From assembly GCA_937860145.1 (NCBI GenBank), contig CALMBF010000155.1, forward strand, positions 123,719 through 147,718: a stretch of DNA of 24,000 nt, in the 5' to 3' direction. Positions 2,527 to 20,424 of this stretch are shown piece by piece. Every line of letters begins with the position of its first letter. Position 1 is the stretch's first letter. The notes below the pieces were generated by a model. That model ran no database searches and was not told where the DNA came from. It was given only the letters and a program-made list of their open reading frames with translations. Source of the DNA: an uncultured Geobacter sp. Lineage in GTDB: Bacteria > Desulfobacterota > Desulfuromonadia > Geobacterales > DSM-12255. Position numbers and translations under genes: made by a program.

Positions 2527-2636
2527 GCTATTTCGTCGAAATTCCTGCGAATGAAGCGTTAACAGTCGATGTTGTTTGAGCCCGTAGGGCGAGTTCATCG
2601 ACTGTAGCGAAATGAGCATGGAATTACAGAAATAGC
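2527..2636. repeat. About 110-nt imperfect inverted repeat (long stem-loop) in the beta3-alpha3 intergenic gap
   Basis: GCTATTTC (2527-2534) pairs with GAAATAGC (2629-2636). ACAGTCGATG (2562-2571) pairs with CATCGACTGT (2596-2605). Apical hairpin GCCCgtaGGGC at 2580-2590. Confidence 0.6.
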
Positions 2637-2683
2637 ACGTCAGCGCGAATGCAGGCGGCTTGCAACTGCCGCACTCCTCATCC

Positions 2684-4024
2684 TTATCGGCCCGGGATCG
2701 CGAACGACATCAGATCTTCCGCCAGGCTGAGGCCCCCACGATAACCGGCATACCCTTTGTTCATCACCACGCGGTTGTTGAGCGGAAAGCTGATCCCCAG
2801 GTGGCGGGCGCCGATGTTGGCGGCCAGTTCCCCTTCGATGGTGCTTCCCAGGATATAGGCCGGGCTAAAGATAGGCGCGTAGCGGTTGCCATCGGTAGCC
2901 GGCCAAAGTCTGGCCAGGTGGGCCGGGATCTGCCCCGCATCGGTTTCGAAGATGATCGTCGGCTGATAGCCGGACTCCAGGCGGTCGTAGCCGTCTATAA
3001 CCGCTGCGTGAAACTGTTCGTCCAGTCCGTCGCTCACCACCGCCAGATCGGTCAGCCAGCCCAGCTCTTCATTGAGAAAGCGGGTTATGGGGAGGGTTGT
3101 GGTGGCATTCCCCACCACCGCGGCATAGAACTGCATGTCTACATCGGTGAACAGGTCGCTCGAGCGTTCGAAGATGCGGTAGTAGAGATCATTTTCCCTG
3201 GCGATGACTGCTTCGGTGGCTTGCGGGTCAAGCCCAAGGGCGGCAGTCACCTCCCGCAGGAAACGGGCGGTGGCCACTGCCCCCACCGGCAGATCCACGA
3301 CTTTGAACGGGGTGGCGAAGCGTTCCTCGAACGTTCTGGCCGGGTCCACGCCATAAGCACGGGATACGACCAGATTGGCCGCTGCCGCCGGTGCACTCCG
3401 CAGGTTGTCCAAGGTTTCGTCCGGGGCGAATAAGGTGTTGACCTCCAGCCCCAGAAGCCCCAGCAGGCGCTTCAGCTCAAGCAGATCACCACGGAAAAAC
3501 GGGTCCTGACCCGGTACCAGTCCCCAGAGGTTGACGAGGCGGGTGTTTATCTCCGCTGCTGGCTTGAGGTAGTGGCGGAAGAGCCCGTCCAGCAGGAGAT
3601 CATACCCCTTGTAGGAGTTCCCCTTGAAACCGCCGGTCTCGATGCCGATCACCGGTATGCCGTTGTCCCGGTGCTCCTGGACCACCGACTGAATGTCATC
3701 GCCGATGATGTCGGTCATGCAGGCCGACACCACCACGTAGAGCTCGCCGTCCATCAGCTCATGGGTGGTGCGGATCTGCTCGCTCAAGCGGTCGCTGCCA
3801 CCGAACACCACCTCATTCTCGACGATGTTGGAGCCGGGGAGCGACGTGCCGCCGCAGTAGCCGGCCCCGTAAAAGCCGCTGCCGGCATAATGGGCCATGT
3901 GCAGGTTGCCGCCGCAGCCGCCGGAGCCATGAATGATCGGGATGGCTTTCGGCAGTGAGGTGATGGCGCTGAGCGCCCCTCCCAGGGCGCAGGTGAAGCG
4001 GGGGTGATCGATAGGGGTACTCAT
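2684..4024 (-). CDS. Nitrogenase-like component 1 beta-type subunit (NifK/NifN-like), paralog beta3, 446 aa
   Basis: Motifs FTCALGGAL, IIHGSGGCGG and SACMTDIIGDD match the three NifK P-cluster cysteine contexts. GGAGGA RBS before the ATG at 4024. Close paralog of 19075..20412. Confidence 0.9.
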   Translation of the reverse strand: MSTPIDHPRFTCALGGALSAITSLPKAIPIIHGSGGCGGNLHMAHYAGSGFYGAGYCGGTSLPGSNIVENEVVFGGSDRLSEQIRTTHELMDGELYVVVSACMTDIIGDDIQSVVQEHRDNGIPVIGIETGGFKGNSYKGYDLLLDGLFRHYLKPAAEINTRLVNLWGLVPGQDPFFRGDLLELKRLLGLLGLEVNTLFAPDETLDNLRSAPAAAANLVVSRAYGVDPARTFEERFATPFKVVDLPVGAVATARFLREVTAALGLDPQATEAVIARENDLYYRIFERSSDLFTDVDMQFYAAVVGNATTTLPITRFLNEELGWLTDLAVVSDGLDEQFHAAVIDGYDRLESGYQPTIIFETDAGQIPAHLARLWPATDGNRYAPIFSPAYILGSTIEGELAANIGARHLGISFPLNNRVVMNKGYAGYRGGLSLAEDLMSFAIPGR

Positions 4025-4051: not shown

Positions 4052-4723
4052 TTAGTGAATTGCGCCAAAATCTGTTTCCAGTAGCACCATTCCCGGTGCA
4101 ATCTCGATAAACGAATCGCCGTCCCACGGGCCGTTGACGACCCGCCGCAACCATGCGTCGCGGCCGCCTATGGTCAGGAATTCCAGCCCCAGCAGCCCAG
4201 CCAGTTCGCGGCCGGTTGCCAGGTGCGCTGTTTCCCTGGGATGGCCGGTATGAACGAAAACAATGCGCCGGTAGGCATCGAACATGGTGGCCATCACCCG
4301 TTTTGCCTTCTGCTCGCCATATTTTTCCCGTACGCGCCGGTATTCGGAAAATACGGTCCGCTCCCCCTCCAGCCAGCCGCCGGAGAGGAAATAAGTCCCC
4401 TTTTCCTCACGGAGGAGTTCTTCATGGGTGTACCGGGACCCAAGGAGGAGCGGGATGCAGTCGTGGGCTCTCGGAATGAACAGCGGTATCCCTGGCGCAG
4501 TCAGTCCTGCCACCGCCCCGCCGCAGAGGCCGAAAGCCAGCACCACCCGGTCTCTACCAGTGGCGCTGGCAAGAACCGCGCGTAACTCCTCCCGCAGTTT
4601 GTCCGGCCAGCGGTGCAGCCCCATGGAGACAAAGTGGAAGATGACCGGGTGTGTCGGCGTTATTGCCAGAAGTTCTTCCTTCATGACGTCGCAGGCAATG
4701 ATGTGGGTAGGTGCGTCAGGCAT
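4052..4723 (-). CDS. DUF1638 domain protein, 223 aa
   Basis: The pattern IIACDVMKEEL...GLH..P..L...FGLCGG...AHDC...LGS...FLSGGW is typical of DUF1638. It lies 27 nt upstream of beta3 on the same strand. Confidence 0.7.
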   Translation of the reverse strand: MPDAPTHIIACDVMKEELLAITPTHPVIFHFVSMGLHRWPDKLREELRAVLASATGRDRVVLAFGLCGGAVAGLTAPGIPLFIPRAHDCIPLLLGSRYTHEELLREEKGTYFLSGGWLEGERTVFSEYRRVREKYGEQKAKRVMATMFDAYRRIVFVHTGHPRETAHLATGRELAGLLGLEFLTIGGRDAWLRRVVNGPWDGDSFIEIAPGMVLLETDFGAIH

Positions 4724-4755
4724 AAACAGTCATATCCGTTGTTGGTATGTGGAAA

Positions 4756-4807
4756 CAAAAAAACCGGAGATCTCCTGTGCGCACGTCACGCAGGGACCTC
4801 CGGTTTT
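4756..4807 (-). terminator. Intrinsic terminator after metK
   Basis: On the minus strand: AACCGGAG..(28 nt)..CTCCGGTT followed by TTTTTTT (the A-run at 4756-4763 on the plus strand). Confidence 0.7.
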
Positions 4808-4874
4808 CCGGTTGGCATGATTTCTCGATAAATTGTGTCGATTACACGTACAGCTCTCTGCACATATGGTGACT

Positions 4875-6056
4875 TCAGGCCAGCCTTGCAGCCCGGTCGA
4901 TGCGCTCCCAGGGGAGATCCAGGTCGTTCCTGCCGAAGTGGCCGTAGGCGGCGGTCTGGCGGTAGATGGGGCGGCGCAGGTCGAGCTGCTCGATGATGGC
5001 CGCCGGGCGGAGGTCAAAATTATCCCTGATGATCAGGGCGAGCTGTTCGTCCGACACCTTGCCGGTGCAGAATGAGTCGACGAACACCGCCACCGGCCGG
5101 GCCACGCCGATGGCGTAGGCGATCTGGATCTCAACCCGCGACGCCAGTCCGGCGGCAACCAGGTTCTTGGCCACGTAGCGGGCGGCATAGGCACCGGAGC
5201 GGTCCACCTTCGTGGGATCCTTGCCCGAGAAGGCACCGCCGCCGTGTCGGGCCACGCCGCCGTAGCTGTCGACGATGATCTTGCGGCCGGTGAGGCCGGC
5301 GTCGCCGTGGGGGCCGCCGACGACGAAGCGACCGGTGGGGTTGATGAAGAAACGGGTCTGGTTGTCCAACAGGTTCGCCGGGATCACCGGCTTGACGATA
5401 CGCTCGATGACGTCGCCGCGGATCTGCTCCAGCTCCACGTCGGGAGCGTGCTGGGTGGAGATGACCACCGTGTCGATCCGTGTCGGCGTGCCGTTTTCGA
5501 ACTGCACCGTCACCTGGCTCTTGCCGTCGGGGCGGAGGTAGCCGATTTCCCCTGATTTTCTGGCCGAGGCCAGCTTGCGGGTCAGGCCGTGGGCCAGGTG
5601 GATGCTGGTGGGGAGGTAGGCATCGGTCTCGTCGGTGGCGTAGCCGAAGACCATTCCCTGGTCACCGGCGCCGACGGAATCGAGATAGCCGTCATGGTCA
5701 ATGCCGGAGCGCTGCTCCAGGGCCGAGTTGACCCCTTGGGCGATATCGGGCGACTGCTGGTCAAGGGAAACCAGGACGGCACTGTGTTCGGCATCGAGCC
5801 CCAGTTCCGAGTTTGTGTAACCGACTTCAGTTATTGCGTCCCGGGCGACGCGAACGGCGTTGATCTGGGCAGTGGCCGAGGTCTCGCCGATGACGACGAC
5901 CAGGCCGGTGGTGACGCTGGTTTCGCAGGCGACGCGGGCAAGGGGATCTTTGTCGAGAAAAGCGTCGAGGATCGAGTCGGAGATGAAATCCGCCAGTTTG
6001 TCCGGGTGCCCTTCGGTGACCGATTCTGAAGTGAAGAGGTAGTTATGTGCCGGCAT
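4875..6056 (-). CDS. metK: S-adenosylmethionine synthetase, 393 aa
   Basis: [23 protein letters not shown]..., GAGDQG and the [11 protein letters not shown] motif. Start set at the ATG at 6056 with an AAGGAG RBS; the longer track ORF to 6347 covers the leader region. Confidence 0.95.
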
Positions 6057-6107
6057 TGCTGCTCCTTTCTGGTGATACCTTGAGTCGCATCCATGGTCTA
6101 TTCGCAT

Positions 6108-6165
6108 AAAAAAAGGCCAAGCAGGGTAGTGCATCCCGACTTGGCCTCCAGTGTGTCTGGTGGAA
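6108..6165 (-). promoter_or_regulatory. metK 5' leader: motif copy A (CCAGacacaCTGG-A-GGCCAAG...CTTGGCC-U7), candidate riboswitch or attenuator with an intrinsic terminator
   Basis: Read on the minus strand: cacaacggttccaCCAGacacaCTGGAGGCCAAGtcGGGatgcactaCCCtgCTTGGCCttttttt, ending 52 nt upstream of the metK ATG. Confidence 0.6.
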
Positions 6166-6223
6166 CCGTTGTGAATGTTCGAAGTGTGTCCGATCAATAT
6201 TTTCTGTGACCGTAGCAATTTAA

Positions 6224-6255
6224 ATCTTGACTTGTCAAGATAAAAAATATATATC
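6224..6255 (+). promoter_or_regulatory. Sigma70-like promoter (TTGACT-N15/17-TATATA/TATATC) overlapping the 18-bp palindrome ATCTTGACttGTCAAGAT
   Basis: TTGACT at 6227-6232 and TATATA at 6248-6253. The palindrome at 6224-6241 places TTGAC on both strands between divergent metK and the tautomerase operon. Confidence 0.5.
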
Positions 6256-6286
6256 CTACAAAAAATGTAGTTTATAACTGTCGCTC

Positions 6287-6333
6287 GCTGACCAGAGAAC
6301 TGGAGGCCGGAAAATCTTTTTCCGGCCTTTTTT
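6287..6333 (+). promoter_or_regulatory. Leader motif copy B (GCTGA-CCAGagaaCTGG-A-GGCCGG...CCGGCC-T6) upstream of the tautomerase gene
   Basis: It lies downstream of the predicted promoter and 35 nt upstream of the GTG at 6368. No plus-strand gene upstream needs a terminator here. Confidence 0.6.
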
Positions 6334-6367
6334 CGTTTCACAATCATACATCACAAAGGAGAGAAGC

Positions 6368-8082: not shown

Positions 8083-8194
8083 CGGGAGCTGGTACGATGA
8101 TCGTTCATCGTTAATCCGGTGGTTGAGCGGTGGCGGAGGAGGCACGTCATGCGAACGGAGTCACCGCTCAACTACCGACTGTGGAGAATCGTTC

Positions 8195-9016
8195 GTGATA
8201 CAACTTGATCTGGACACCCGGCTCCTGGCCGAAAATTATGACGAGCTGAGCGACTACCAGTTCGACAATGGTCGACGTCTACTGGAACTGCTCGATATCC
8301 GGCCCAACTCACGGGTCCTCGACATCGGCTGCGGTACGGGCCGTCTCGGGCTCCTGGTCGCGGAGTCCCTTGGTGACGACGGAAGGCTCATCGGCATTGA
8401 CCCTCTGCCCGAGCGGATCAGGATCGCCTGCAGCAAGAAGGCCCCGGCCAATGCGCGCTTTCAGGTCGGGGTGGGTGAGGACCTCGGTTTTCTCGACTGC
8501 GAGAGCATTGATGTCGTCTTTCTGAGTGCGGTATTCCACTGGATTGCCAACAAGGAGAAAGCGCTGCGGGAAATAGCCCGGGTGCTCAAGCCGGGGGGAC
8601 GGATCGGCCTTACCACGGGAGCCAGGGAGTTGGCCCGGGAAGCAACGTACCGCAAGATTACGGATCGGGTTCTGCTTCGCCTACCGTACAACAAGGTAGT
8701 CAATATCGAGGATTATGTCTTTACCCGGCACGGCGTTACCGCAACCCAGCTGGTACAGCACTTCCTCGGCGCCAAGCTGGCCGTGCAGAGCGTCGACATC
8801 CGCAAGCGATGCAAGTATTTCCGCAGCGGGATGGAGATTGTCGATTTTCTTGAATCGAGCACCTTCGGCAACTATCTGCAGCATGTGCCCGGCAACTTGC
8901 GGGAGGATGCCCGACGTGAGATCATTCTCGAGTTCGATAGCCTGAAGGCCGGTGGCCAGGTCGAGTTTACCGGGTTCACCATCTTTGCCGTGGCGGAGAA
9001 GCCGCTGGTGGATTGA
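8195..9016 (+). CDS. Class I SAM-dependent methyltransferase, paralog 1, 273 aa
   Basis: GTG at 8195 after GGAGAA. Motif I is VLDIGCGTGRLG. It aligns end to end (roughly half the residues identical by eye) with 16353..17171. The upstream part of the track ORF (from 8123) is unsupported. Confidence 0.8.
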   Translation: MIQLDLDTRLLAENYDELSDYQFDNGRRLLELLDIRPNSRVLDIGCGTGRLGLLVAESLGDDGRLIGIDPLPERIRIACSKKAPANARFQVGVGEDLGFLDCESIDVVFLSAVFHWIANKEKALREIARVLKPGGRIGLTTGARELAREATYRKITDRVLLRLPYNKVVNIEDYVFTRHGVTATQLVQHFLGAKLAVQSVDIRKRCKYFRSGMEIVDFLESSTFGNYLQHVPGNLREDARREIILEFDSLKAGGQVEFTGFTIFAVAEKPLVD

Positions 9017-9040
9017 ACCGCCGGCAAGCCGGGAGCTCAA

Positions 9041-10006
9041 GTGGATCATTTATCAGAAAGTATAGTCACGGCAGGTGAAACAGGAGTTGAATCCGTTTTC
9101 ATGGAGGATGAGCCCATCTCGTTACGCAGGGAAAACCGGACATTAGCCTATCTGGCACTTTTTTCCGGCGTTCTCTGCATCAGCGGCTCTGCCCTTTTCG
9201 TCAAGCTGGCCGCTGTCCCCGGCCCGGTGTCGGCCTTTTACCGCTTTCTGTTCACCGGTATTGTCCTGATACCCTGGTGGCTCGGCAGCGGTTCGTCCCG
9301 ACCGGACCGGTCGCAGCTCTGGCTATCTATCGCCGGCGGTCTGTTTCTCGGGCTGGACCTCTTCCTCTGGAACACCAGTATCATGCTCACCACTGCCTCG
9401 ACTGCCACCCTGCTGGGTAACAATGCGCCGATCTGGGTAGGCATCGGTGCGTCGCTTGTCTTCAAAGAGAAGCTGACCGGCCGCTACTGGTCCGGTCTGT
9501 CTCTCGCTCTGCTGGGAATGGTGCTGGTACTCGGGGCAGGAAACTGGCACTTGCCCGCAAGCAGCCGTGGGGACTTCCTGGCGGTTGCCGCCGGGTTTTT
9601 CTACGGCGCCTACCTGCTGACAACACAGAAAGCCCGCTCTATCGCGAATACCCTTACCTTCATGACCTTCTCGGTGGTGACGGGGGGGCTTTTGCTGCTG
9701 ATTCTAACCCTTGTCATGGGACTTCCCCTGACGGGCTACAGCGGCAGTTCCTGGTCCTATCTGGTTGCCTTGGCCCTGATATCACATCTCGGCGGCTGGC
9801 TGGGGGTCAACTATGCCCTGGGTTATCTGAAAGCCTCGGTGGTGTCGGTGTCGCTACTGTCTCAGGTCGTGGTCACGGTAGTTCTGGCCATGCCTCTTTT
9901 GGGTGAGCGGCTGAGCCTGCCGCAGCTGATCGGTGGTGGGCTGGTTCTCTCGGGTATCTACCTGGTCAACAGCCGGTGGTATAAAATTACAGAAAGGAGA
10001 ATCTAA
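9041..10006 (+). CDS. EamA/DMT-family transporter
   Basis: About ten hydrophobic segments with typical EamA repeat organisation. The start is uncertain (GTG at 9041 or ATG at 9101). Confidence 0.75.
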   Translation: MDHLSESIVTAGETGVESVFMEDEPISLRRENRTLAYLALFSGVLCISGSALFVKLAAVPGPVSAFYRFLFTGIVLIPWWLGSGSSRPDRSQLWLSIAGGLFLGLDLFLWNTSIMLTTASTATLLGNNAPIWVGIGASLVFKEKLTGRYWSGLSLALLGMVLVLGAGNWHLPASSRGDFLAVAAGFFYGAYLLTTQKARSIANTLTFMTFSVVTGGLLLLILTLVMGLPLTGYSGSSWSYLVALALISHLGGWLGVNYALGYLKASVVSVSLLSQVVVTVVLAMPLLGERLSLPQLIGGGLVLSGIYLVNSRWYKITERRI

Positions 10007-10615: not shown

Positions 10616-10658
10616 ATCTATAAACACGATAGATAATATAGTTACAAGGAGGGGCGCA

Positions 10659-12857
10659 GTGCATCCAGTGTATCTTGACTACAATGCAACTACTCCGGTT
10701 GACCCCCTGGTGGTTGATGAGCTGCTCCCCTGGTTGCAGGAAGGGTTCGGCAATCCATCCAGTAATCACCCGTACGGCCAGCGTGCCAAACATGCAGTGG
10801 AGCAGGCTCGTTCGCGGGTGGCGTCACTGCTTGGCGCGCATCCGGCGGAGATTATATTTACCAGCGGTGGTACCGAGGCAAACAATCAGGCGCTGATCGG
10901 GGTTGCCCTGGCCAACTGCGAGCGGGGTCGGCATATCATCACGTCGTCCATTGAACACCCGGCAGTCCTGAATCCGCTCCACTGGCTGGAGGGGCAGGGG
11001 TTCAACATCACCTATCTCCCCGTGGACAGCTCCGGACGGGTAGATCCGGAGACGTTGCGCCAGGCCATCACCTGCGAGACAATTCTCGTCAGCGTGATGC
11101 ATGCCAACAACGAGGTGGGGACTATCCAGCCGCTGGCCGAGATCGGCGCCATCGCCCGGGAACACGGCATTCTGCTGCACACCGATGCCGCCCAGTCGGT
11201 GGGGAAGATCCCGACGAGGGTGGATGAACTGGGGGTGGACCTGCTGACCATTGCCGGCCACAAGTTTTATGCCCCCAAGGGGATCGGCGCCCTCTATGTG
11301 CGCACGGGGGTGAAGATTGATCCCTACCTGCATGGCGCCGGACACGAAGGGGGCCGTCGGGCGGGGACCGAAAACGTCCCCTATATCGCCGCACTGGGTA
11401 AGGCGGCAGAACTGGCGGGCCAGCGGTTGGCCAGCGAAGGGGAGCGCATTCGTGAGCTGCGGGACCGCTTCCATGCCCGGCTGAACGAACTGGTTGACGG
11501 GGTCCTGCTGAATGGCCACCCCACCGAGCGCCTCCCCAACACTCTCAACATCAGCTTCAGCGACGTGGTCGGGGCTGATCTGCTGTCCCGTATTCCGGAG
11601 ATGGCCGCTTCCACCGGTTCGGCCTGTCATGACGGCAGCGGCGAGCTGTCCGGCGTGCTCAAGGCCATGGGGGTGCCACGGGAGCAGGGTTTCGGCGCCA
11701 TCCGCTTCAGCCTCGGCCGGCTTACCACCGCCGAGGAGCTGGAACGGGCAGCAGAGCTTGTTGCGACCAGGGTCAGGGAAATTCGCGCCATCCGGGGTGG
11801 TGTTTCCCATAATCACGTTCAGACCGGGCTCTCCGCCCTGGCTTCCTGCGCCGGTTGAGCGGCCAAGATAAGTCCTCAGGACCTGGCTCAAGTTTTGAGT
11901 CAGCTACCAAGCATTACCGACCCGAATGTACTCATCGGCACCAAAACCGCCGATGATGCCGCCGTTTACCGTGTGAACGATGATCTGGCCATCGTGCAGA
12001 CGGTGGACTACTTTACTCCGGTGGTGGACGACCCCTATCTGTTCGGCCAGATTACCGCTGCCAACTCCCTGTCCGATATCTATGCCATGGGGGCTACGCC
12101 TCTCTTTGCTCTGAACATAGCCGGGTTTCCATCCGATACGCTTCCCTTGGATGTTCTGGCCAGGATTCTCCAGGGGGGTGCTGACAAGGCGGCGGAAGCA
12201 GGCATCAGCATCATCGGCGGCCATACCATCAAGGATGCGGAGCCGAAATACGGCATGGCGGTCACCGCGGTGATCCATCCCGACCAGGTGATCAGTAACG
12301 CCGGGGCCAAACCGGGTGACCGGCTGATCCTCACCAAGCCGCTGGGAATCGGGATTATTACGACTGCCATGAAAAGCGGCAAGGTTACAGAAAAGACCGT
12401 TGCCGAAGTTGTCGCTGTCATGGCGAGTCTGAACAGGAGTGCCGCAGAGGCGATGGTTGTGGTCGGAGCCCATGCCTGCACCGACGTGACCGGTTTCGGA
12501 TTCCTCGGCCATCTTTCCGAAATGGTCCGTGGAAGCGGCGTCGGCGCGGTGATCAGCGTGTCGAGGGTGCCGGTGCTGGAAGAGGCCTGGAGTCTGGTGC
12601 GTGAGGGGATTGCTCCGGGCGGCAGCCGACGCAACCTGGAATTTTTGCGCGACCGGCTCACGGTAGAAACGGGTGTCAGCGAAGAGGAGCTGCTTGTCCT
12701 GGCCGATGCCCAGACCTCTGGCGGGTTGCTGATAGCATTGCCGGCAGACGACGTTGACCGGTTAGAGACGGAACTTGCCGGACGGGGTGTGACAGATGTT
12801 GCCGAAATCGGCGAGATTGTGGCCGATCCCGACAGCCGGATCACCCTGAGACCCTAG
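10659..12857 (+). CDS. selD: NifS-like cysteine desulfurase/selenocysteine lyase fused to selenophosphate synthetase; in-frame UGA (Sec) at 11856-11858; 732 aa
   Basis: GTG after AAGGAGG. The N-terminal domain has the PLP Lys context GHKFYAPKG and the active-site motif GSAC. Reading through the TGA gives ...SCAG-U-AAKISPQDLAQVL..., matching the SelD G-x-G-C/U-x-x-K-I-S-P active site. The rest is SelD-like (DDAAVY, VDYFTP, TDVTGFG). Confidence 0.8.
11859..11899 (+). other. Candidate SECIS-like stem-loop immediately 3' of the UGA
   Basis: GCCAagataaGTCCtcaGGACcTGGC at 11862-11887, followed by CTCAAgttTTGAG at 11887-11899. Confidence 0.4.
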
Positions 12858-12868: not shown

Positions 12869-13645
12869 ATGGCAACCGGCTTGCAACTGGGCACCCTGTT
12901 CATGCTCGGCATGTCCGGAGGGTTTTTGTCCGGACTCCTGGGCATTGGCGGCGGCATTGTCATGCTGCCGCTCCTCATATCGCTGCCACAGTTAACGGGT
13001 TTTTCCATCGGTCTCCGTCCGGCTGTCGGGATTACCATGCTCCAGAGCCTGAGTGGATCCCTGTCGGGCATGCTGATCCATCGCAGGCACGATGTCTTCG
13101 ACGTTCCCCTTGCCCTCACGGTAGGGGTGTGCGCCGCTGCCGGATCAATGGGGGGAGCTCTCTTTTCCAGCCTGGTGAGTGAGCGGTGCATGGCGATCCT
13201 TTTTGCCGTGATGGCGTTAACAAGCCTGCTGCTTCTGCTCTTACCCGAATCCGGGGAGTTGCCATCAACTGATAGCACATGCCCGAAGCGCTTTCCTGCC
13301 GCATCGCTGCTGGGGGGTGGTGTCGGTTTTTGTGCCGGGATCATCGGCCAGGGGGGCGCATTCATCATCCTTCCCCTCTTGATTCATCTGCTGAAGGTAC
13401 CGGTGCGGACGGCAATCGGTACGACCGTCGCAGTCTCGTTTTTATCCGCAGCTGCCGGATTCATCGGTAAATGGAGCACCGGACAGGTCCCCCTGCTCTG
13501 GGGAGTCGCCGTGGCATCCGGAGCGCTGCTGGGGGGGCAGCTGGGGGGTATGGTCAGCCACCGGTTATCGACAATCACCCTGCGTCGAATCCTGTTCCTG
13601 GTGGTTGCGGTCAGCATGCTGCGTATATTTGCCCACGTCCTTTAG
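12869..13645 (+). CDS. TauE/SafE (DUF81) family anion exporter-like membrane protein, 258 aa
   Basis: Gly-rich TM1 (GGFLSGLLGIGGGIVMLPLL) and an internal repeat (GIIGQGGAFIILPLL) are typical of the TauE family. Confidence 0.75.
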   Translation: MATGLQLGTLFMLGMSGGFLSGLLGIGGGIVMLPLLISLPQLTGFSIGLRPAVGITMLQSLSGSLSGMLIHRRHDVFDVPLALTVGVCAAAGSMGGALFSSLVSERCMAILFAVMALTSLLLLLLPESGELPSTDSTCPKRFPAASLLGGGVGFCAGIIGQGGAFIILPLLIHLLKVPVRTAIGTTVAVSFLSAAAGFIGKWSTGQVPLLWGVAVASGALLGGQLGGMVSHRLSTITLRRILFLVVAVSMLRIFAHVL

Positions 13646-14352: not shown

Positions 14353-15816
14353 ATGGGCAATCGTAACCTGTTACGTGATCCGATCTGGCGAGGCGATGAA
14401 CTGGGAAAGGCACTTCCCGATTCGCTCCATGCCGTCTCCGTGGCGCTGCCGCATTGGCAGGACGTGGTTGGTTATGAGGAGAAGCGGCCCGAGGTGGTCA
14501 ATCGATTGCAATGCGGCTACCCCCGCTTCGTCATTCACCGCCTGGTGCAGGATCTGGCGCGGTTTATCGCCGGTGATCGCCCCTGCCTGCCGTTCCCTTC
14601 GCAGCACACGGCGCAGCAGTGCGTGGCTTTCATTCATCGCCAGAGCGGCGTCGAAGCTCAGGTGGTCGAGCGGGACGGGCAGTATGGTGTTGCCACGACC
14701 GACAGCGGTTACGACAGCCTCAAGGCTTTCTGGCAGCATACCGGCCTGATCGTCTCCACCCGCCGGGCCCAGTCGATATTGAGCGGTATCTCGCGGGTAC
14801 AATCTGATGATCGGGAAGTGCGGGATTCTCTTCGGCGACAGCTGGCCGGGTTGTACGACTGTTCTCCCGATGACGTATTCCTGCAGCCAACCGGCATGGC
14901 GGCCATGTTTGCCGCCCTGCGGGCGGTCATGCGGCGTACACCGGGCAGGCCGACGGTGCAGATCGGCTTCCCTTATGTGGATACGCTCAAGCTGCAGGAG
15001 AAATTCGGCCACGGCGCAACCCTGCTCCATGACCTCAACCATTGTACTGAAAACCTGCGTGCCCTTCTGCAACAAGGGGCTCTAGCCGGATGCTTCAGTG
15101 AGATTCCCGGTAACCCCTTGCTCGGATCTGCCGATCTGCGCGAGATCACCCCGATCCTGCGGGAGCACGGCGTGCCGCTGGTGGCCGACGACGTTGTTGC
15201 CACACCCCTGAACGTGGACCTCGGTTCCCATGCCGACCTGATCGCCACCAGCCTGACCAAATACATTTTCGGCAGGGGGGACGTCATGGGTGGCGCCCTG
15301 ATCTGCAACCCCCGCTCTCCCTATCACATCGAGCTTAGGGCCATTGCAACATCGCTGCACGAGGAGCTTCTCTGGCTTGATGATGCCGTGGTGCTGGAAG
15401 AGCAGATCGGCAGCTTTCCGGAGCGGATGCGGGTTCACAACCGTAACGGCCTGATCATTGCCGAACGGCTTCGCTCCCATCCTGCAGTTGAACAGGTCTG
15501 GTTTCCGAAATGGTCGTTCGGCGACGCCTACGAGGCGGTGCGCCGACCCGATGGCGGGTGGGGTTCCCTGGTCACCTTTCTGCCAAAGAACGCCGAGACC
15601 GCGTCACCCCGTATCTATGACAATCTTGAAGTTTGCAAGGGCCCGAGTCTGGGAACCAGCTTTACCCTGGCCTGTCCCTTTACCCTGCTGGCCCATTACA
15701 CTGAACTGGAGTGGGCTGAGGCCTGCGGGGTGCCGCGGTATCTGATCCGGCTCTCCGTGGGGCTCGAAGATCCGGAAGAACTCTGGGGCCGGATTGTCCG
15801 GGCGCTGGAAGCATAA
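14353..15816 (+). CDS. Cys/Met-metabolism PLP-dependent enzyme (cystathionine gamma-synthase-like, long Str2-type form), 487 aa
   Basis: The PLP-lysine context SLTKYIFGRGDVMGG, plus an N-terminal extension of roughly 100 aa with HAVSVALPHWQDVVGYEE. AGGAGG RBS. Confidence 0.75.
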   Translation: MGNRNLLRDPIWRGDELGKALPDSLHAVSVALPHWQDVVGYEEKRPEVVNRLQCGYPRFVIHRLVQDLARFIAGDRPCLPFPSQHTAQQCVAFIHRQSGVEAQVVERDGQYGVATTDSGYDSLKAFWQHTGLIVSTRRAQSILSGISRVQSDDREVRDSLRRQLAGLYDCSPDDVFLQPTGMAAMFAALRAVMRRTPGRPTVQIGFPYVDTLKLQEKFGHGATLLHDLNHCTENLRALLQQGALAGCFSEIPGNPLLGSADLREITPILREHGVPLVADDVVATPLNVDLGSHADLIATSLTKYIFGRGDVMGGALICNPRSPYHIELRAIATSLHEELLWLDDAVVLEEQIGSFPERMRVHNRNGLIIAERLRSHPAVEQVWFPKWSFGDAYEAVRRPDGGWGSLVTFLPKNAETASPRIYDNLEVCKGPSLGTSFTLACPFTLLAHYTELEWAEACGVPRYLIRLSVGLEDPEELWGRIVRALEA

Positions 15817-16000: not shown

Positions 16001-16114
16001 GTTCATGACAGCTGCTGGAGACTGTAGAACTTAGTTCATGATTGAAGTTGTACATCAACAGGAGCTATACAACTTCAAGTGAATAAACGCATTGCCGATA
16101 GGGAGGATGAATAC

Positions 16115-16336
16115 ATGACTGCAGAGGTTGAAACTGTTCTGGATCTTGTCCGGCCAGCGTTACTGGCGGACGGGGGAAATGTGGAGCTGGTGGAGATTAC
16201 CGAGGATGGTTTTGTGAAGGTGCAGCTGACTGGAGCCTGTGGCCACTGTCCCATGTCGGCACAGACGCTTAAGTTAGGTGTTGAACGGACCCTGAAGAGC
16301 AAGCTCCCCTGGGTAAAAGGAGTGCTGTCAATTTAG
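16115..16336 (+). CDS. Nfu/NifU C-terminal-domain Fe-S cluster carrier protein, 73 aa
   Basis: ATG at 16115 after [24 protein letters not shown]...GACGHCPMS is the NifU C-terminal CxxC signature. Confidence 0.85.
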
Positions 16337-16352
16337 TTTTCCGGAGATAACG

Positions 16353-17171
16353 ATGATATCCCTTGCGCTTGATAACAGTAAACTCGCCAAAACCTACGAC
16401 GAAATCAGCGATTCCCAGTACGAGTCCGGCAAGAAGCTGCTTGCCGAACTCAAAGTCAAACCGGGTGAGACCGTGCTCGACATCGGCTGCGGCACCGGTC
16501 GGCTCGGACTCTACCTGCTCGATATTATCGGTCCGACCGGCCGTTTCATCGGCATCGATCCGCTGCCGGAGCGTATCAGTATTGCCAATGACAATAATGT
16601 TCACCCTAACGCCGAATTCCGTACCGGTGTGGCTGAAGACCTCTCGTTTCTGGGGAACAACAGCGTCGACCTGGTCTACCTGAGCGCCGTGTTCCACTGG
16701 GTACCCGATAAGCAGAAGGCATTGCAGGAGATCAGCCGGGTGTTGAAGCCGGGTGGCAGGATCGGTTTGACCACCAACGCCAAGGAGTTGGTTAAGGCGA
16801 CCACCCTCCGTTCCGTGACCACGGAGGTGTTATCTCGGGTTCCCTATCGCGGCCAAGTGGATGCCGAGGCTTTTGCCCCGACCCGCCACGGGGTGACAGC
16901 CACCCAGCTGGTTGAGCTCTTTCTCGATGCGGGATTCAGGGTTGCGGACGTCCGTGTCCTGGCCATCGAGCGTTTGTACCATACCGGACGTGATATCGTC
17001 GACTTTGCCGAAGCAAGTACCTTTGGCAATTACCTGAACCACGTGCCGGCAGATTTGCGGGATAAAGCCCGTTTTGACCTGGAGAGCGCCTTTGAGATAC
17101 TGCGTGGTGACGAGGGGATTCCGTTTCAGCTATATACACTTTTTGCCATTGCCGAAAAGATCGGCGCCTGA
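16353..17171 (+). CDS. Class I SAM-dependent methyltransferase, paralog 2, 272 aa
   Basis: Motif I is VLDIGCGTGRLG. Collinear with 8195..9016 (shared blocks LSAVFHW, VLKPGGRIGLTT, RHGVTATQLV, STFGNYL.HVP). Confidence 0.85.
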   Translation: MISLALDNSKLAKTYDEISDSQYESGKKLLAELKVKPGETVLDIGCGTGRLGLYLLDIIGPTGRFIGIDPLPERISIANDNNVHPNAEFRTGVAEDLSFLGNNSVDLVYLSAVFHWVPDKQKALQEISRVLKPGGRIGLTTNAKELVKATTLRSVTTEVLSRVPYRGQVDAEAFAPTRHGVTATQLVELFLDAGFRVADVRVLAIERLYHTGRDIVDFAEASTFGNYLNHVPADLRDKARFDLESAFEILRGDEGIPFQLYTLFAIAEKIGA

Positions 17172-17248: not shown

Positions 17249-17314
17249 GCTGACCGGCAAAGCCGGAGGTGCCTGATGCGCATGTGCGCATGGCCCTCCG
17301 GCTTTTCTTTTTTT
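17249..17314 (+). promoter_or_regulatory. Motif copy D (GCTGA-CCGGCaaaGCCGG-AGG) merged with a strong intrinsic terminator, between the methyltransferase and alpha1
   Basis: AAGCCGGAGG (17260-17269) pairs with CCTCCGGCTT (17295-17304), with an inner ATGCGCAtgTGCGCAT, followed by TTCTTTTTTT. The alpha1 RBS follows 20 nt later. Confidence 0.65.
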
Positions 17315-17345
17315 GCAACCGACAATAGAGGAGAGAGGTGTACGT

Positions 17346-18875
17346 ATGGGATTGAAAGAAGACCGGGTTGTCCCCGGCAGGGAAGACCGGGTAGCGGCCT
17401 GCATGGCCTATGGCGGCAGCGCCTGCAGTATCGGCGGCGAAAGCAAGGCATGTCTGAAGAACAGCGAGCGGGGTTTTTCCCAGGCCGGCATCTGCCAGCT
17501 ACTGCCGACCTTGGGGATGCTCCTGACCCTGCCGGATATTGCCGTGATCATCCATGGCGCCATCGGCTGCGGTTCTGCCGGGTTCGGTATGAATGTCAGT
17601 ATTCGCCTGCATCATCTGCTCCGCGGCAATCCCAATGCCAAGGACAGCCTATGGTTCAGTACCAACCTGGATGAGGCGGATGTGGTGCATGGCGGCGAAC
17701 AGCGGCTGGAGGAGACTATCCTCACTGTAAACGAACGCTACAAACCGAAATCCATCGTCGTGGTGCAGACCTGCACCCCGTCCATCATCGGCGATGATCT
17801 CGTGGGGGTGGTGGAAAAAGTCCGGCCGCTGGTGGAGGCCAACATACTCTATGCCCACTGCGAAGGGTTCAAGACCAAGGTCTGGGCCACCGGCTATGAC
17901 GTGGCTTTTCATGCCATGATTCACGGTTACATAGAAAAGGACAAGGAGGGGCCGCCGCCACGAAAAGCCCCCTGGCAACCGGGACAGCGGCCGACGGTCA
18001 ATGTCATCAACCTGGCCTCCGTCGGCAAGCCGGACGAGGAGGAGATCGAACGGCTCCTCAATGCCATCGGCATCGATGTGACCATCGGCCCCAACTTCGC
18101 CGACCGGGAAAAGGTGCGGCAGCTGACTCAGGCCGACCTGACGGTCAGCATCTGCCCGACCCATGACGACTACCTGGTCGATTACCTGCACACCGAGTAC
18201 GGCATCCCCTTCGTCCTGAAGGACATGCCGATCGGCCTGGAGAATACCCGCAACTGGTTGCTGGATATTGCGGGCAAATTCGGTCTGGAAAAGGAGGCGC
18301 TGGCCCTGATAGAGGCCGAGGAGGCCAGGGCGCGCACAGCGGTGGAGCGCTTCCTTCCCGTGCTGAAGGGGATCCGGGTATTTCTCTCCGCCGGTGAGTT
18401 CCGGGCGCTGGTTACCGGCGGGCTGTTCCAGGAGCTGGGGATGGAGATCGTCGGGGTACGCTCCTACCACCATGACGAGTTCGGCACCGATTTCTACGGC
18501 CGGCTGGTAAACGGTCAGCAGGGGAAGGACTTCCCGGTGGATATCGCCAATTTCCAGCCCTTCGAACTGGTCAATCTGTTGCAGCAGGTCAAGCCGGACC
18601 TCTTTGCCGGCCATATCTGGGACAACGCCTGGGCCGCCCGCCTCGGCTATCCCACCATCACCATCTTCCGCATCTTCGACTACTACGTCGGCTACCGCGG
18701 TTTCTATGAAGTGGCAAAAAAGGCGGCCCGCATCCTGCGCAACCATTCGTTCAATGCCAATCTGAGCAGAAACGTTACCGATGCCTACCGCCCGGAGTGG
18801 TATGAGCAGAACGCTTTCAAATACATCAAGTCAGGGCTGCCTGAGGGTCTGCAATCGGATACAGCTGCAGTGTAA
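17346..18875 (+). CDS. Nitrogenase-like alpha-type subunit (NifD/NifE-like), paralog alpha1, 509 aa
   Basis: ATG at 17346 after GGAGAGAGG. Motifs IHGAIGCGS, QTCTPSIIGDD, AHCEGFK and SICPTHDDY..EYGIP. Collinear with alpha3. Confidence 0.9.
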   Translation: MGLKEDRVVPGREDRVAACMAYGGSACSIGGESKACLKNSERGFSQAGICQLLPTLGMLLTLPDIAVIIHGAIGCGSAGFGMNVSIRLHHLLRGNPNAKDSLWFSTNLDEADVVHGGEQRLEETILTVNERYKPKSIVVVQTCTPSIIGDDLVGVVEKVRPLVEANILYAHCEGFKTKVWATGYDVAFHAMIHGYIEKDKEGPPPRKAPWQPGQRPTVNVINLASVGKPDEEEIERLLNAIGIDVTIGPNFADREKVRQLTQADLTVSICPTHDDYLVDYLHTEYGIPFVLKDMPIGLENTRNWLLDIAGKFGLEKEALALIEAEEARARTAVERFLPVLKGIRVFLSAGEFRALVTGGLFQELGMEIVGVRSYHHDEFGTDFYGRLVNGQQGKDFPVDIANFQPFELVNLLQQVKPDLFAGHIWDNAWAARLGYPTITIFRIFDYYVGYRGFYEVAKKAARILRNHSFNANLSRNVTDAYRPEWYEQNAFKYIKSGLPEGLQSDTAAV

Positions 18876-18909
18876 ATATACCTGATGACTATCAATTCTT
18901 CCGTAAATT

Positions 18910-19013
18910 CCTTCTCCCTCAGGGAGAAGGTGGCCTCAGGCCGGATGAGGGTGGTAACAGTGCCATTATGCACCATTTCCCCCTCACCCTAGCCCTCTCC
19001 CTCAGGGAGAGGG
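18910..19013. repeat. REP-like element: inverted pair of CCYTCTCCC-tca-GGGAGARGG hairpins in the alpha1-beta1 gap
   Basis: Hairpins at 18910-18930 and 18993-19013, plus GGCCtcaGGCC at 18932-18942. The two halves are approximately reverse-complementary. Confidence 0.65.
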
Positions 19014-19074
19014 GACTCTGTATAAGCTGTAGTGGCAGGTACGATTAAATTAATTACCAAGGAGTAACATCCAT

Positions 19075-20412
19075 ATGAGCACATTTATTGAACGCCCCCG
19101 CTACCAGTGCGCCCTCGGCGGCGCGCTGGTTACCATCAATGCCATTGAACGGGCAGTGGCAATTGTCCACGCTTCACCCGGGTGCGCTGCGGCTGCCGAT
19201 GGCGCCGCTGCCTTTGGCGGCGGCTACTGGGGGTCCACCGTCCACGACGGCCGGGCCACCCCGAGCAGTAACATCGTCGAGCGTGAAGTCATCTTCGGCG
19301 GTGAGGAGCGGCTTGCCGAGCAGATCAGCGCCACCCTCGATGTGGTCGACGCCGATCTCTACGCGGTCATCACCGGCTGCATGACCGACATCATCGGCGA
19401 CGATGTCCGCTCGGTGGTGAACGAGTTCCGCAGACAGGGGAAACCGGTCATAGTAGCCGAAACCGGCGGCTTCAAGGGAAACTCCACCGTCGGCTACGAA
19501 TTTCTCTGGGATGCACTGATCAACCAGTTCGTCTCAAAGGGGCTGCCGAAAAAAGACCGGCTGGTCAACATTTTCGGTGTGCTGCCGGTACAGGATGTTT
19601 TCTGGCGCGGCAACCTGCTCGAACTGAAAAGGCTGCTGTCAGCCATCGGCATCGAGGCCAACACCTTTGTTACCCCGTTCGATGACACCGCGTCGCTGAA
19701 AAACGCCTCCCAGGCGGCTCTTTCGATCGTCCTTTCCGATGTCCACGGTCAAAAGGCCGCCGCTCTTTTCGAGGAGGTACACGGGGTGCCGTATATCACC
19801 GAGTCCCTCCCGTTCGGCCCGACGGCGACGGAACGGTTCCTGCGCCGGATCGCAGAACTCTTCAACATCTCCTCGGCAAAGCTGAACCGGGTACTGAAGG
19901 AAGAGCGCCGGCACTATTACCAGTTCATCAATCCGCTGACCGATCTCTTTACCGACCAGGATTTCCAGCGTTTCGGCGTGGTCATCGGCAATGCCAATTA
20001 CGCTTACGCGGTGAGTCGCTTCATCGCCGACGATCTCGGCTGGATTCCCTATTTTGCGGCCATCACCGATATTCTGGATGAACAGCAGCAGGCAGCGGTA
20101 CTGGCGCGTTTTGCCACGATTCCCGAACAGGCGCGCCCCAAGGTCATTTTCGAGACCGACACCAGCCGGATCAGGGAGCGGCTGTTTGCCGAACTGGAAA
20201 AGGAGAATGATCCTTACGGGACCCCGATCAGTCCGGCATTCGTTATCGGCAGTAACCTCGACCGTCCTCTGGCTGCGGATCTGAAGGCCGGCTTCTGGGG
20301 CGTATCCTATCCGATTACCAACCGGGTTGTGACCGACCAGGGTTATCTCGGCTATCGTGGCGGCCTGCGCTTGGCGACCGAGGTTGTCAGCGCACTTGTT
20401 AGCAACCGATAA
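19075..20412 (+). CDS. Nitrogenase-like beta-type subunit (NifK/NifN-like), paralog beta1, 445 aa
   Basis: Motifs YQCALGGAL, IVHASPGCAA and TGCMTDIIGDD. AAGGAG RBS. Close paralog of beta3. Confidence 0.9.
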   Translation: MSTFIERPRYQCALGGALVTINAIERAVAIVHASPGCAAAADGAAAFGGGYWGSTVHDGRATPSSNIVEREVIFGGEERLAEQISATLDVVDADLYAVITGCMTDIIGDDVRSVVNEFRRQGKPVIVAETGGFKGNSTVGYEFLWDALINQFVSKGLPKKDRLVNIFGVLPVQDVFWRGNLLELKRLLSAIGIEANTFVTPFDDTASLKNASQAALSIVLSDVHGQKAAALFEEVHGVPYITESLPFGPTATERFLRRIAELFNISSAKLNRVLKEERRHYYQFINPLTDLFTDQDFQRFGVVIGNANYAYAVSRFIADDLGWIPYFAAITDILDEQQQAAVLARFATIPEQARPKVIFETDTSRIRERLFAELEKENDPYGTPISPAFVIGSNLDRPLAADLKAGFWGVSYPITNRVVTDQGYLGYRGGLRLATEVVSALVSNR

Positions 20413-20424
20413 AGGAGAGCATGT

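Follow-up and report, generated by a model that had tools for sequence, protein, structure and literature searches.

The window analysed here is a stretch of DNA of 24,000 nucleotides in which a cysteine desulfurase-like frame and a SelD-like frame are separated by a TGA at 11856–11858. The locus raises the question of whether this triplet ends one gene or encodes selenocysteine (Sec) inside a longer one. An earlier note, made from the sequence, had proposed a single NifS-SelD polypeptide containing Sec. This proposal gained support from the presence of the TGA in 9 loci, from at least 33 database proteins that end at it and from Cys-containing homologs, and also from purifying selection shared by both halves in one frame, a covarying hairpin compliant with the bacterial SECIS (bSECIS) model, and a dip in synonymous variability. 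With a probability of roughly 0.88, judged from such comparisons, positions 10659–12857 of the plus strand are one gene for a ~78-kDa, 732-residue NifS-SelD selenoprotein.

The NifS-SelD concept has been published since 2008, and this work therefore confirms and extends a known design and does not report a new one. The passages on Geobacter sp. FRC-32 in Zhang et al. (2008, PMC2398784) and Mariotti et al. (2015, PMC4561486) describe a NifS-SelD protein with a CxxU motif, which is the Geobacter precedent that the earlier note had mentioned. According to these passages, the FRC-32 protein has an N-terminal COG1104/NifS-like and a C-terminal SelD part in one ORF with Sec in CxxU, and its host belongs to the same bacterial family; the junction C397-A-G-U400 of the window, within a single 732-codon frame, is likewise a CxxU (PMC2398784). 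FRC-32 is named there as the sole Sec case, whereas we found at least 9 loci, at least 33 database proteins, and four other named isolates, and the host of the window is an uncultured Geobacteraceae-like bacterium. A SECIS element for the FRC-32 gene was not described in those passages of the two papers (PMC2398784, PMC4561486). The additions made here are that the Sec form defines a whole Geobacteraceae clade, that public annotation still splits the gene, and a description of the gene neighbourhood.

Limits of the gene and its public annotation

Translation of the plus strand gave one frame from a GTG at 10659 to a TAG at 12855–12857, broken solely by the TGA at 11856–11858. The complete coding sequence of the fusion (10659–12857) comprises 732 codons and the TAG, with the TGA, read as Sec, at codon 400. 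These limits agree exactly with the earlier description of a 399-aa ORF ending at the TGA, a second ORF in the same frame from a TTG at 11895, and a 732-aa product with the UGA at codon 400. Across the gap between the 399-codon ORF (GTG 10659 to TGA 11856–11858) and the second ORF, the frame reads ...LSALASCAG-*-AAKISPQDLAQVLSQLPSITDPNVLIG... without a shift. A Shine-Dalgarno sequence, AGGAGG (10647–10652, plus strand), was read off the sequence 6 nt 5' of the GTG. The orthologs of the fusion comprise 731–734 codons with ATG starts and have the N-terminus xPxYLDYNATT in common with the window, and the full-length Cys-type homologs are 732–761 aa long.

In public annotation the gene is divided into products of 399 and 320 aa (JGI) or of 399 and 339 or 355 aa (NCBI). 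The split corresponds to a reading in which a NifS protein stops at the TGA and SelD begins separately at an internal start. The genes of the NCBI isolates are indeed annotated as overlapping in-frame genes, the ORF callers' 320-aa 'SelD' of JGI starts at the TTG (11895–11897, plus strand), and separate neighbouring selD and nifS-like genes are known from some Bacillota/Firmicutes and deltaproteobacterial MAGs (L059, L070, and L071). However, a product begun at the TTG would lack both Sec400 and Lys403, which confirms the note's remark that the 11895 ORF is without the active-site motif, and the TTG falls inside the SECIS stem, within the 3' arm of hairpin H2 described below. The overlapping SelD genes of NCBI start at CTG or ATT codons that lie 6 or 22 codons 5' of the TGA, lack a Shine-Dalgarno sequence, and are inconsistent in position; no internal start is conserved. 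ATG, GTG, and TTG are all absent from the frame within 40 codons 5' of the TGA in the window and in L118, and the note's statement that SelD has no separate start holds for canonical in-frame starts over this distance. Furthermore, the close Cys-type orthologs are continuous 732-residue ORFs. We consider two separate proteins very unlikely.

If the gene is read as one, JGI, NCBI, and generic ORF callers give a truncated 'cysteine desulfurase' together with a SelD that either lacks its active site or has an implausible CTG/ATT start. The mis-annotation extends to at least 33 database proteins, some of them in named isolate genomes, and censuses of SelD, selenium use, and selenoproteomes in Geobacteraceae are consequently affected. 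Further candidates for TGA read-through within the window were not convincing: that at 9014 was rejected as two adjacent genes with a common frame, and that leading into EamA was rejected because EamA has a GTG start of its own.

Domains and active sites of the predicted enzyme

Both domains named in the earlier note were recovered by profile searches. The N-terminal domain (10659–11792, plus strand; residues 1–378) is an intact IscS/NifS-type (group I) PLP-dependent cysteine desulfurase or selenocysteine-lyase-type domain that matches Pfam Aminotran_5 at 5.4e-80 and E. coli IscS (1p3w) at 1.9e-102 over residues 3–377. It combines the class-V aminotransferase fold with a PLP lysine and a catalytic cysteine loop. 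The PLP-binding Lys202 lies in an AGHK motif (codon at 11262–11264, plus strand), and the catalytic Cys323, which is expected to carry the persulfide or perselenide (codon at 11625–11627, plus strand), corresponds in the alignment to the SGSAC-loop cysteine of IscS (1p3w/3lvj). The scores against TIGR03402 NifS (484 bits; cut-off 530.75), TIGR02006 IscS (417 bits; cut-off 643), and the selenocysteine lyase SclA profile NF040779 (136.9 bits; cut-off 525) were all under the respective cut-offs. By these scores the domain is placed as a superfamily member in neither of the named equivalogs, NifS and IscS. A selenocysteine-lyase-like specificity had been considered on the basis of the ACH loop and was dropped; the PDB matches place the loop nearest IscS, and therefore no specificity is claimed for the domain.

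The two domains are joined by a hypervariable linker (11793–11825, plus strand; residues 379–389), whose variability is 0.62/0.88/1.0 at the three codon positions. The linker varies at all three positions while the flanking domains do not, and its sequence differs among orthologs, yet the frame stays open through it.

The SelD (selenide, water dikinase) domain (11826–12854, plus strand; residues 390–732) is intact and was matched by TIGR00476 with 385.8 bits (cut-off 125) from profile position 12, by NF002098 with 348 bits (cut-off 299), by both Pfam AIRS and AIRS_C, and by the structures 3u0o and 2yye at about 1e-70. The UGA for Sec400 (11856–11858, plus strand) aligns with Cys17 of E. coli SelD and Lys403 (11865–11867, plus strand) with Lys20 in the alignment to 3u0o; the UGA thus stands at the catalytic position, where the note had placed it. 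Without read-through of the UGA, the product would lack both the catalytic Cys/Sec and the Lys of the glycine-rich N-terminal loop of SelD, since the 11895 ORF contains neither. Cys397, the first residue of CxxU (11847–11849, plus strand), is present in the Geobacteraceae clade (7 of 121 fusions), and Gly occupies its place in the distant Cys-type fusions. Lys202, Cys323, Cys or Sec at 400, and Lys403 are invariant across all 121 fusions, as are Asp432, Asp433, Asp450, Asp473, Asp609, and Asn469, the presumed ATP- and metal-site residues of the family.

We propose the following route from gene to product. Translation would begin at GTG 10659 behind the AGGAGG, hairpin H2 (11883–11903) would recruit SelB-Sec-tRNA(Sec) to UGA 11856 for the insertion of selenocysteine, and translation would then run on to the TAG at 12855. 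The IscS/NifS-type domain, with PLP on Lys202, may release selenium from free selenocysteine, or sulfur from free cysteine, and the mobile Cys323 loop would bear the selenium as a perselenide. Beyond the ~11-residue linker that connects the desulfurase domain to SelD, a flexible loop at the N-terminus of SelD (C397-A-G-U400-A-A-K403) may take up the selenium, and the AIRS-fold core would use ATP to phosphorylate it to selenophosphate, which supplies selenium for Sec-tRNA, selenouridine, and other products that contain the element. The fusion would make permanent a hand-off that is done in trans by E. coli NifS-like proteins and SelD. The single frame, the complete set of catalytic residues in both domains, the conserved UGA with Cys in its place in homologs, the SECIS-type hairpin, and purifying selection on both halves were observed, whereas the insertion of Sec at UGA 11856, the physiological substrate, and direct channelling of selenium between the domains are inferred. 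A covalently joined desulfurase and SelD would be the cleanest natural argument that NifS-type perselenide, and not free selenide, feeds SelD. The in vivo selenium donor is still called incompletely resolved in a 2026 review (PMC13188914), and the cultured carriers G. pickeringii and the Geotalea species make the question testable.

Conservation of the TGA and the hairpin behind it

The TGA was found in the same frame in 8 other independent loci, and thus in all 9 Sec-type loci when the window is included; each has more than 400 open codons 5' of the TGA and 332 codons 3' of it. The Sec-type loci include those of four Geobacteraceae isolates, Geobacter pickeringii, Geotalea toluenoxydans, Geotalea sp. 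SG265, and Geomesophilobacter sediminis, and one is from a complete isolate genome; the nearest named relatives of the window organism are ~80% identical. At least 33 database proteins terminate at the invariant tail TGLSALASCAG, though the linker just before it varies. Among the matches listed, all 120 full-length fusions of the other type (at least 120 in total) have Cys at the UGA position, and the nearest of them are 74–78% identical. The close Cys-type loci L087 and L107 have TGT or TGC in place of TGA and are unbroken 732-residue ORFs. Among the matches listed from a genome scan with generic IscS peptide patterns, every fusion was of the Cys type and the other entries were plain NifS genes; the source genome and the Sec-type relatives were not among them. 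A pattern scan of metagenomes added one further Sec-type fusion (L102), and most of its matches were stand-alone Cys SelDs with a CGGCAAK loop. These comparisons indicate that the recurrence of the TGA in the same frame in 8 other loci is not due to chance, and that the Sec form of NifS-SelD is the defining form of a whole Geobacteraceae clade. An in-frame UGA that aligns with the Cys of homologs and is conserved in orthologs is the pattern expected of a selenoprotein.

Both halves of the gene are under purifying selection. Variability at the three codon positions was alike in both halves (0.36/0.23/0.91 vs 0.32/0.24/0.87), and the third-position entropy was lowest at codons 397–417 (0.26–0.46, against a mean of 0.95 for the gene). 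These values bear on the reading in which the TGA is an artefact of sequencing, or else a nonsense mutation that arose recently in a Cys-type fusion, which is suggested by the single base (TGY vs TGA) that separates the codon from that of the Cys-type fusions with 74–78% identity. However, the TGA is present in two independent assemblies of the source organism as well as in the 8 further loci, one of them a complete isolate genome; purifying selection is undiminished in the half 3' of the TGA; and this half begins with a specific RNA structure and constraint on synonymous sites. A sequencing error or a pseudogene is thus exceedingly improbable.

The RNA structure in question is the core hairpin H2 (11883–11903, plus strand), a 9-bp stem CUGGCUCAA/UUGAGUCAG with the apical loop GUU at 11892–11894. 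Its predicted energy is -9.8 kcal/mol (z = -4.28), and none of 200 shuffles was as stable. The bSECIS model (PMC13188914) describes an apical loop of 3–9 nt with G in its first two positions (G[G|U]), a stem of 4–16 bp, a UGA–loop spacing of 16–37 nt, and an MFE of at most -7.5 kcal/mol. H2 lies within all of these bounds (PMC13188914), and its loop is 33 nt 3' of the UGA, close to the upper limit of the spacing (16–37 nt). By comparison, the stem at 11862–11887 that the note had regarded as the SECIS gave -6.0 kcal/mol (z = -0.71), with 40 of 200 shuffles equal or better, and its UCA loop is without G, so that it falls outside the energy and loop bounds of the bSECIS model. We rejected this stem; the element conserved in the orthologs is that at 11883–11903.

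Across the 9 loci, 96.3% of the H2 cells were paired, compared with 14–42% in slide controls. Compensatory changes were found in two pairs and 6 of the 9 stem pairs were invariant among these 9 closely related sequences; in one of the compensated pairs, a synonymous substitution is matched by a replacement of Ser by Gly. The covariation score was reached by 2 of 500 shuffles. The evolutionary support is modest, because only 9 related sequences contribute to it. H2 falls where synonymous variation is lowest in the gene, in the dip directly after the UGA. It also coincides with a conserved peptide, DLAQVLSQL, and is retained in part in the close Cys-type locus L087, and coding constraint therefore explains part of its conservation. 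No Rfam SECIS family matched the region, either at the gathering threshold or with E ≤ 10 allowed, and the sole match was a spurious snoRNA (E = 2.5); the SECIS elements of bacteria vary widely, and existing models capture them poorly (PMC12013277). A second hairpin, H1 (11853–11874, plus strand; GGYUGAG...CUCAGUC), which contains the UGA itself, was found in the RNAalifold consensus. It is intact in 8 of the 9 loci and weakened in the window, where two pairs are broken because ATA (Ile404) replaces the CTC (Leu) of the others.

The UGA may have a further role, in which many ribosomes terminate at 11856, yielding a separate desulfurase of 399 residues, while the rest go on to produce the fusion. 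The balance between free NifS and NifS-SelD would then follow the selenium supply, with positive feedback, because Sec-tRNA synthesis needs SelD activity. Bacterial Sec insertion is inefficient and competes with release factor 2, as is known from E. coli. The UGA stands exactly at the domain boundary, so that termination there would leave an entire desulfurase followed by a tail of 21 residues; stand-alone relatives of the NifS clade without SelD exist at 69–74% identity (L050, L054, and L055); and Cys has taken the place of Sec in close relatives, a change that would abolish the switch and implies that both states are viable. On the other hand, such feedback is common to any Sec-containing SelD, and the catalytic site alone accounts for where the UGA lies. 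The tail TGLSALASCAG forms the first strand and loop of SelD, which explains its conservation without any need for a truncated protein to use it. We regard a dual output as possible but rather unlikely, and it would extend the single-selenoprotein reading, not replace it.

Neighbourhood and relatives of the fusion

The gene next to the fusion encodes a TauE/SafE-family (TSUP) permease (12869–13645, plus strand; Pfam TauE, 2.5e-42), begins 11 nt 3' of it, and is probably in the same operon. A TauE gene also directly follows the fusion in L117, L119, and L123 and is absent beside 54 distant Cys-type fusions. Around the fusion, the window contains three nitrogenase-like D/K pairs, DUF1638, MetK, two methyltransferases, a BesB-like PLP enzyme, and NifU. 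URO-D/DUF1638 or nitrogenase-like genes flank the fusion in L117–L122, but in none of the 54 distant Cys-type loci. In the Geobacteraceae clade, the fusion gene is placed amid nitrogenase-like, methyl-sulfur, and methyl-selenium salvage genes. Among 50 loci of distant Cys-type fusions, there was no conserved neighbour except mnmH (tRNA 2-selenouridine synthase), which lies directly 5' of the fusion in 3 of the 50 and lends indirect support to the synthesis of selenophosphate by the predicted fusions. Within the 24-kb window, selA, selB, selC, and tRNA genes were absent; the passages on FRC-32 in Mariotti et al. (2015, PMC4561486) report Sec machinery for that genome.

This setting would also fit a more specialised role, in which the Sec-type fusion is the selenium entry of an anaerobic organo-selenium/organo-sulfur salvage island and not a housekeeping SelD. 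Nitrogenase-like (Mar-type) reductases and corrinoid/URO-D methyltransferase modules would act on methylated selenium compounds to free selenide or seleno-amino acids, uptake or export might fall to the TauE permease and to ABC transporters, the fusion would turn the freed selenium straight into selenophosphate, and the UGA would tie the output of the fused enzyme to selenium status. Salvage of methyl-selenide has been proposed for related clusters in a preprint (PMC10418091). We regard this role as possible but unlikely.

The selenoprotein proposed here has relatives at several levels. Two prokaryotic instances are given by Mariotti et al. (2015, PMC4561486); in the database, the Cys-type NifS-SelD proteins now number at least 120 cluster representatives, with at least 50 genome loci confirmed. 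These fusions, from Chloroflexota, Zixibacteria, Bacteroidota, KSB1, and others, have the same domain order, a length of 732–761 aa, and all catalytic residues invariant, but they contain Cys in a loop G-L-G-C-A-C-K instead of C-x-G-U-A-A-K and have neither a SECIS nor a conserved neighbourhood. NifS-SPS has also been reported in Naegleria and Acanthamoeba. In regard to separate proteins, NifS-like proteins hand selenium to SelD (Lacourciere et al. 2000, as cited in PMC4561486). The same two activities in series have been proposed for E. coli IscS, CsdA, and SufS/CsdB with SelD as separate proteins, whereas the two domains of the window are covalently joined. The Enterococcus faecalis selD-sclA operon, as mentioned in PMC13188914, also encodes separate proteins, and the desulfurase domain of the window is nearest to IscS (1.9e-102) and not of the SclA type (137 bits vs a cut-off of 525). 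The Ndh-SelD fusions, as outlined in the pertinent parts of PMC2398784 and PMC4561486, likewise have an N-terminal accessory domain on SelD; however, the partner is NADH-dehydrogenase-like, the motif invariably contains Cys (CxxC), and another accessory chemistry is predicted. The window protein scored 141 bits against TIGR04369, used for the comparison with Ndh-SelD, under the cut-off of 700. The stand-alone Sec SelD of Aquifex aeolicus (PDB 2yye/2zod) shares the G-U-A-A-K loop, the AIRS fold (about 1e-70), and the UGA position, but is without a fused selenium-delivery domain. Another stand-alone Sec SelD, L109, has the C-A-G-U motif found in the window.

Reading frame and domains of the fusion

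The window carried a single 732-codon frame at 10659-12857 on the plus strand, which was preceded by AGGAGG 6 nt 5' of its GTG start, interrupted only by the TGA at 11856-11858 (codon 400) and terminated by the TAG at 12855-12857. The ORF track divided this frame into 399 aa from GTG 10659 and 320 aa from TTG 11895, as the earlier note had claimed in describing one gene split at 11856. Translation gave the junction peptide ...TGLSALASCAG-[TGA]-AAKISPQDLAQVLSQLPSITDPNVLIG..., identical to that in the note, and the 320-aa product missed both the Sec/Cys and the Lys of the active site, as had been stated there.

Over residues 1-378, the product is an IscS/NifS-type PLP enzyme of class V (Pfam Aminotran_5, 5.4e-80). 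The desulfurase half matched E. coli IscS (PDB 1p3w) at 1.9e-102, with Cys323 aligned opposite the cysteine of the SGSAC loop, and scored 484 bits against NCBIfam NifS, slightly below the cut-off of 530.75. The domain is IscS-like, and it scored far under the SclA model. Two database desulfurases, P0148 (612 aa) and P0220 (574 aa), were 73-76% identical to this domain and carried a SAM-methyltransferase partner, not SelD; therefore, the NifS clade of the window is fused to different partners. Separate neighbouring selD and nifS-like genes, with selD first, the order opposite to the fusion, were found at L059, L070, and L071 (two Bacillota/Firmicutes MAGs and one deltaproteobacterial MAG). These nifS-like genes were 56-61% identical to that of the window, and the pairs are the unfused counterpart of the fusion.

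The residues following the TGA matched SelD (TIGR00476, 386 bits versus a cut-off of 125) from profile position 12. Residue-by-residue alignment to E. coli SelD (3u0o) placed the TGA on Cys17, the catalytic position that the note had assigned to it, and Lys403 on Lys20. The G-C/U-A-A-K loop is the same as that of Aquifex aeolicus SelD (2yye/2zod). In an alignment of 121 fusions, PLP-Lys202, Cys323, Cys/Sec400, Lys403, and five Asp and one Asn of SelD were invariant. A stand-alone Sec-containing SelD was also observed at L109 (minus strand, match 122-163; GLTQFVSCAG-TGA-AAKVGPEDL, only 18 codons upstream); it shares the C-A-G-U-A-A-K loop, and thus the CxxU loop is not confined to the fusion.

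The architecture has already been published, and the window copy is a newly added member. Zhang et al. 2008 (PMC2398784) report a NifS-SelD with a CxxU motif in Geobacter sp. FRC-32, and Mariotti et al. 2015 (PMC4561486) describe two prokaryotic NifS-SPS fusions with Sec machinery in those genomes, as well as fusions in Naegleria and Acanthamoeba. C397-A-G-U400 of the window is the motif published for FRC-32; therefore, the interpretation in the note as a NifS-SelD selenoprotein, which our results support, and its cautious reference to a Geobacter precedent were both right.

Conservation and annotation of the TGA

At least 120 full-length fusions, 732-761 aa long, were recovered with the read-through product as query. 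Each of those listed carries Cys where the window has the TGA, and the nearest among them were 74-78% identical. With the 399-aa half as query, the search yielded approximately 30 clusters of 396-400-aa "cysteine desulfurases" (33 sequences including cluster members), the closest named relatives being Geobacter pickeringii and Geotalea species (~80% identity). All 33 terminated with an invariant TGLSALASCAG following a variable linker (GGVSHNHVQ, ADTGGDLAR, KDNRDLER, and others). We examined the DNA for eight: Geobacter pickeringii CP009788.1, Geotalea toluenoxydans, Geotalea sp. SG265, Geomesophilobacter sediminis, and four metagenomic contigs. The TGA occupied the identical codon in all eight, with >400 open codons 5' in each and 332-337 open codons 3' in seven; L121 was open for 213 codons up to the contig end. 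Two close Cys-type loci had TGT or TGC instead. Among eight full-length Sec-type genes, the codon-position variabilities of the two halves were the same (0.36/0.23/0.91 vs 0.32/0.24/0.87); the 11-residue linker was hypervariable, and no part of the protein was more conserved than the loop around the UGA (0.13/0.00/0.65). These comparisons argue for decoding of the TGA and show, as a further addition of this analysis, that the Sec form is a clade and not a singleton.

Within 40 codons 5' of the TGA, no in-frame ATG, GTG, or TTG was present in the window, in agreement with the claim that a stand-alone SelD start is absent, or in L118; such codons in the remaining Sec-type loci were not conserved in position. 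The separate SelD annotated by NCBI in isolates (L117, 11180-12199; L118, 11132-12199; L119, 11177-12196; L120, 7180-8199) overlaps the desulfurase in frame and starts at CTG (6 codons 5' of the TGA) or ATT (22 codons 5'), with no Shine-Dalgarno sequence at these starts. The starts look like artefacts from fitting a start onto a Sec-containing SelD model. The separate SelD calls in isolate genomes are a systematic mis-annotation of the fused selenoprotein, an error newly shown here to persist.

RNA structure at the junction

The observation in the note was real except for its hairpin coordinates. The stem-loop proposed at 11862-11887 was rejected as a SECIS; it reached only -6.0 kcal/mol (z = -0.71) with a UCA loop, and the conserved hairpin lies elsewhere. 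RNAalifold on nine Sec-type junctions gave two hairpins, H1 (11853-11874), which contains the UGA, and H2 (11883-11903). The window has ATA (Ile404) at 11868-11870, where the other eight genes have CTC (Leu), and two H1 pairs are broken; H1 is thus weakened in the window and is probably dispensable for recoding.

H2 (CUGGCUCAA-GUU-UUGAGUCAG) had -9.8 kcal/mol and z = -4.28, and none of 200 shuffles was as good. The bSECIS model of a 2026 review (PMC13188914) specifies a loop of 3-9 nt opened by G[G|U], a stem of 4-16 bp, 16-37 nt from the UGA, and an MFE <= -7.5 kcal/mol; H2 agrees with it on every point, with a spacing of 33 nt. Across nine related sequences only, of a hairpin that also encodes a conserved peptide, 96.3% of the alignment cells were paired, versus 14-42% with slid partners, and two pairs showed compensatory changes: A-U to G-C in Geotalea sp. 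SG265, and U-A to C-G in L121 (a synonymous Ala change and a Ser-to-Gly replacement). The third codon position was free in the loop (U/G/C) and almost fixed in the stem. Synonymous variation along the gene was lowest in codons 397-417 (mean third-position entropy 0.26-0.46 vs 0.95 overall), which held 12 of the 15 lowest-entropy windows. In the Cys-type relatives, H2 was partly retained (L087) or disrupted (L107), and their junctions showed no folding advantage over shuffles (z = +0.67 and -0.08). No match to an Rfam family was obtained. We place the putative SECIS-type element at H2, an addition of this analysis.

Proposed selenium role and genomic neighbourhood

As judged from sequence, the desulfurase and SelD are both intact and share one frame, in which a predicted Sec codon falls in the selenium-accepting loop and is accompanied by a SECIS-type element. 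The chemistry proposed here follows what is established for IscS/NifS and SelD. With PLP as cofactor, the desulfurase would free selenium from selenocysteine as a perselenide on Cys323 and pass it to the C397/U400 loop, after which SelD would form selenophosphate in an ATP-dependent reaction. PMC4561486, citing Lacourciere 2000, has NifS-like proteins supplying selenium to SelD; the 2026 review (PMC13188914) regards the in vivo donor as still unresolved. MnmH (tRNA 2-selenouridine synthase; 381 bits, cut-off 241) was encoded directly 5' of the Cys-type fusion, on the same strand, at 3 of 50 distant loci (L017, 4957-5982, and two others), an adjacency that supports a genuine selenium role of the fusion family.

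In the window, a TauE/TSUP permease gene lies 11 nt 3' of the fusion, and one also follows it in L117, L119, and L123. Three nitrogenase-like D/K pairs (918-4024, minus strand; 17313-23213, plus strand) comprise six Oxidored_nitro genes, all far under the NifD/K/E/N cut-offs (e.g., 178 bits vs 486), and no NifH-like gene was seen within the window. Nitrogenase-like genes also occur near the fusion in L117, L118, L119, L121, L122, and the close Cys-type L107. Genes for DUF1638, MetK, two ArsM-like SAM methyltransferases, a BesB-like Cys/Met PLP enzyme (210 bits, cut-off 800), and a NifU-like protein occupy 4052-6347 (minus strand), 8123-9016, 14353-15816, and 16079-17171; EamA, a nitroreductase, and a chromate-transporter half are further neighbours. 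URO-D genes are found at L118 and L120, in the latter with DUF1638 immediately 5' of the fusion. None of the TauE, nitrogenase-like, or URO-D/DUF1638 neighbours occurred at the 54 distant Cys-type loci, and this clade-specific context is new here. The window flanks and the URO-D genes of L118 and L120 resemble the 'mlp' clusters of a preprint (PMC10418091), in which related clusters of URO-D/corrinoid genes, frequently located close to MarHDK-like genes, are proposed to function in methyl-sulfur/methyl-selenium salvage. This resemblance suggests that the Geobacteraceae fusion may serve such a salvage pathway.

The TGA at 9014, which closes a methyltransferase gene, is in frame with the EamA gene that comes next (314 and 329 codons). 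A second selenoprotein at 9014-9043 is unlikely; the shared frame is apparently a coincidence because the proteins are unrelated and EamA begins at a GTG of its own (9041).

The window was 99.995% identical to JGI metagenome contig Ga0209725_1000015 (sample 3300025144, 106.7 kb), the sole difference being an indel at 5124 in metK (minus strand), where one C of the window is missing from the contig (GATCTGGATC and GATTGGATC, respectively). The contig metK is split into 72 and 340 aa and the window ORF is intact; therefore, the window and the contig come from separate assemblies of one organism.
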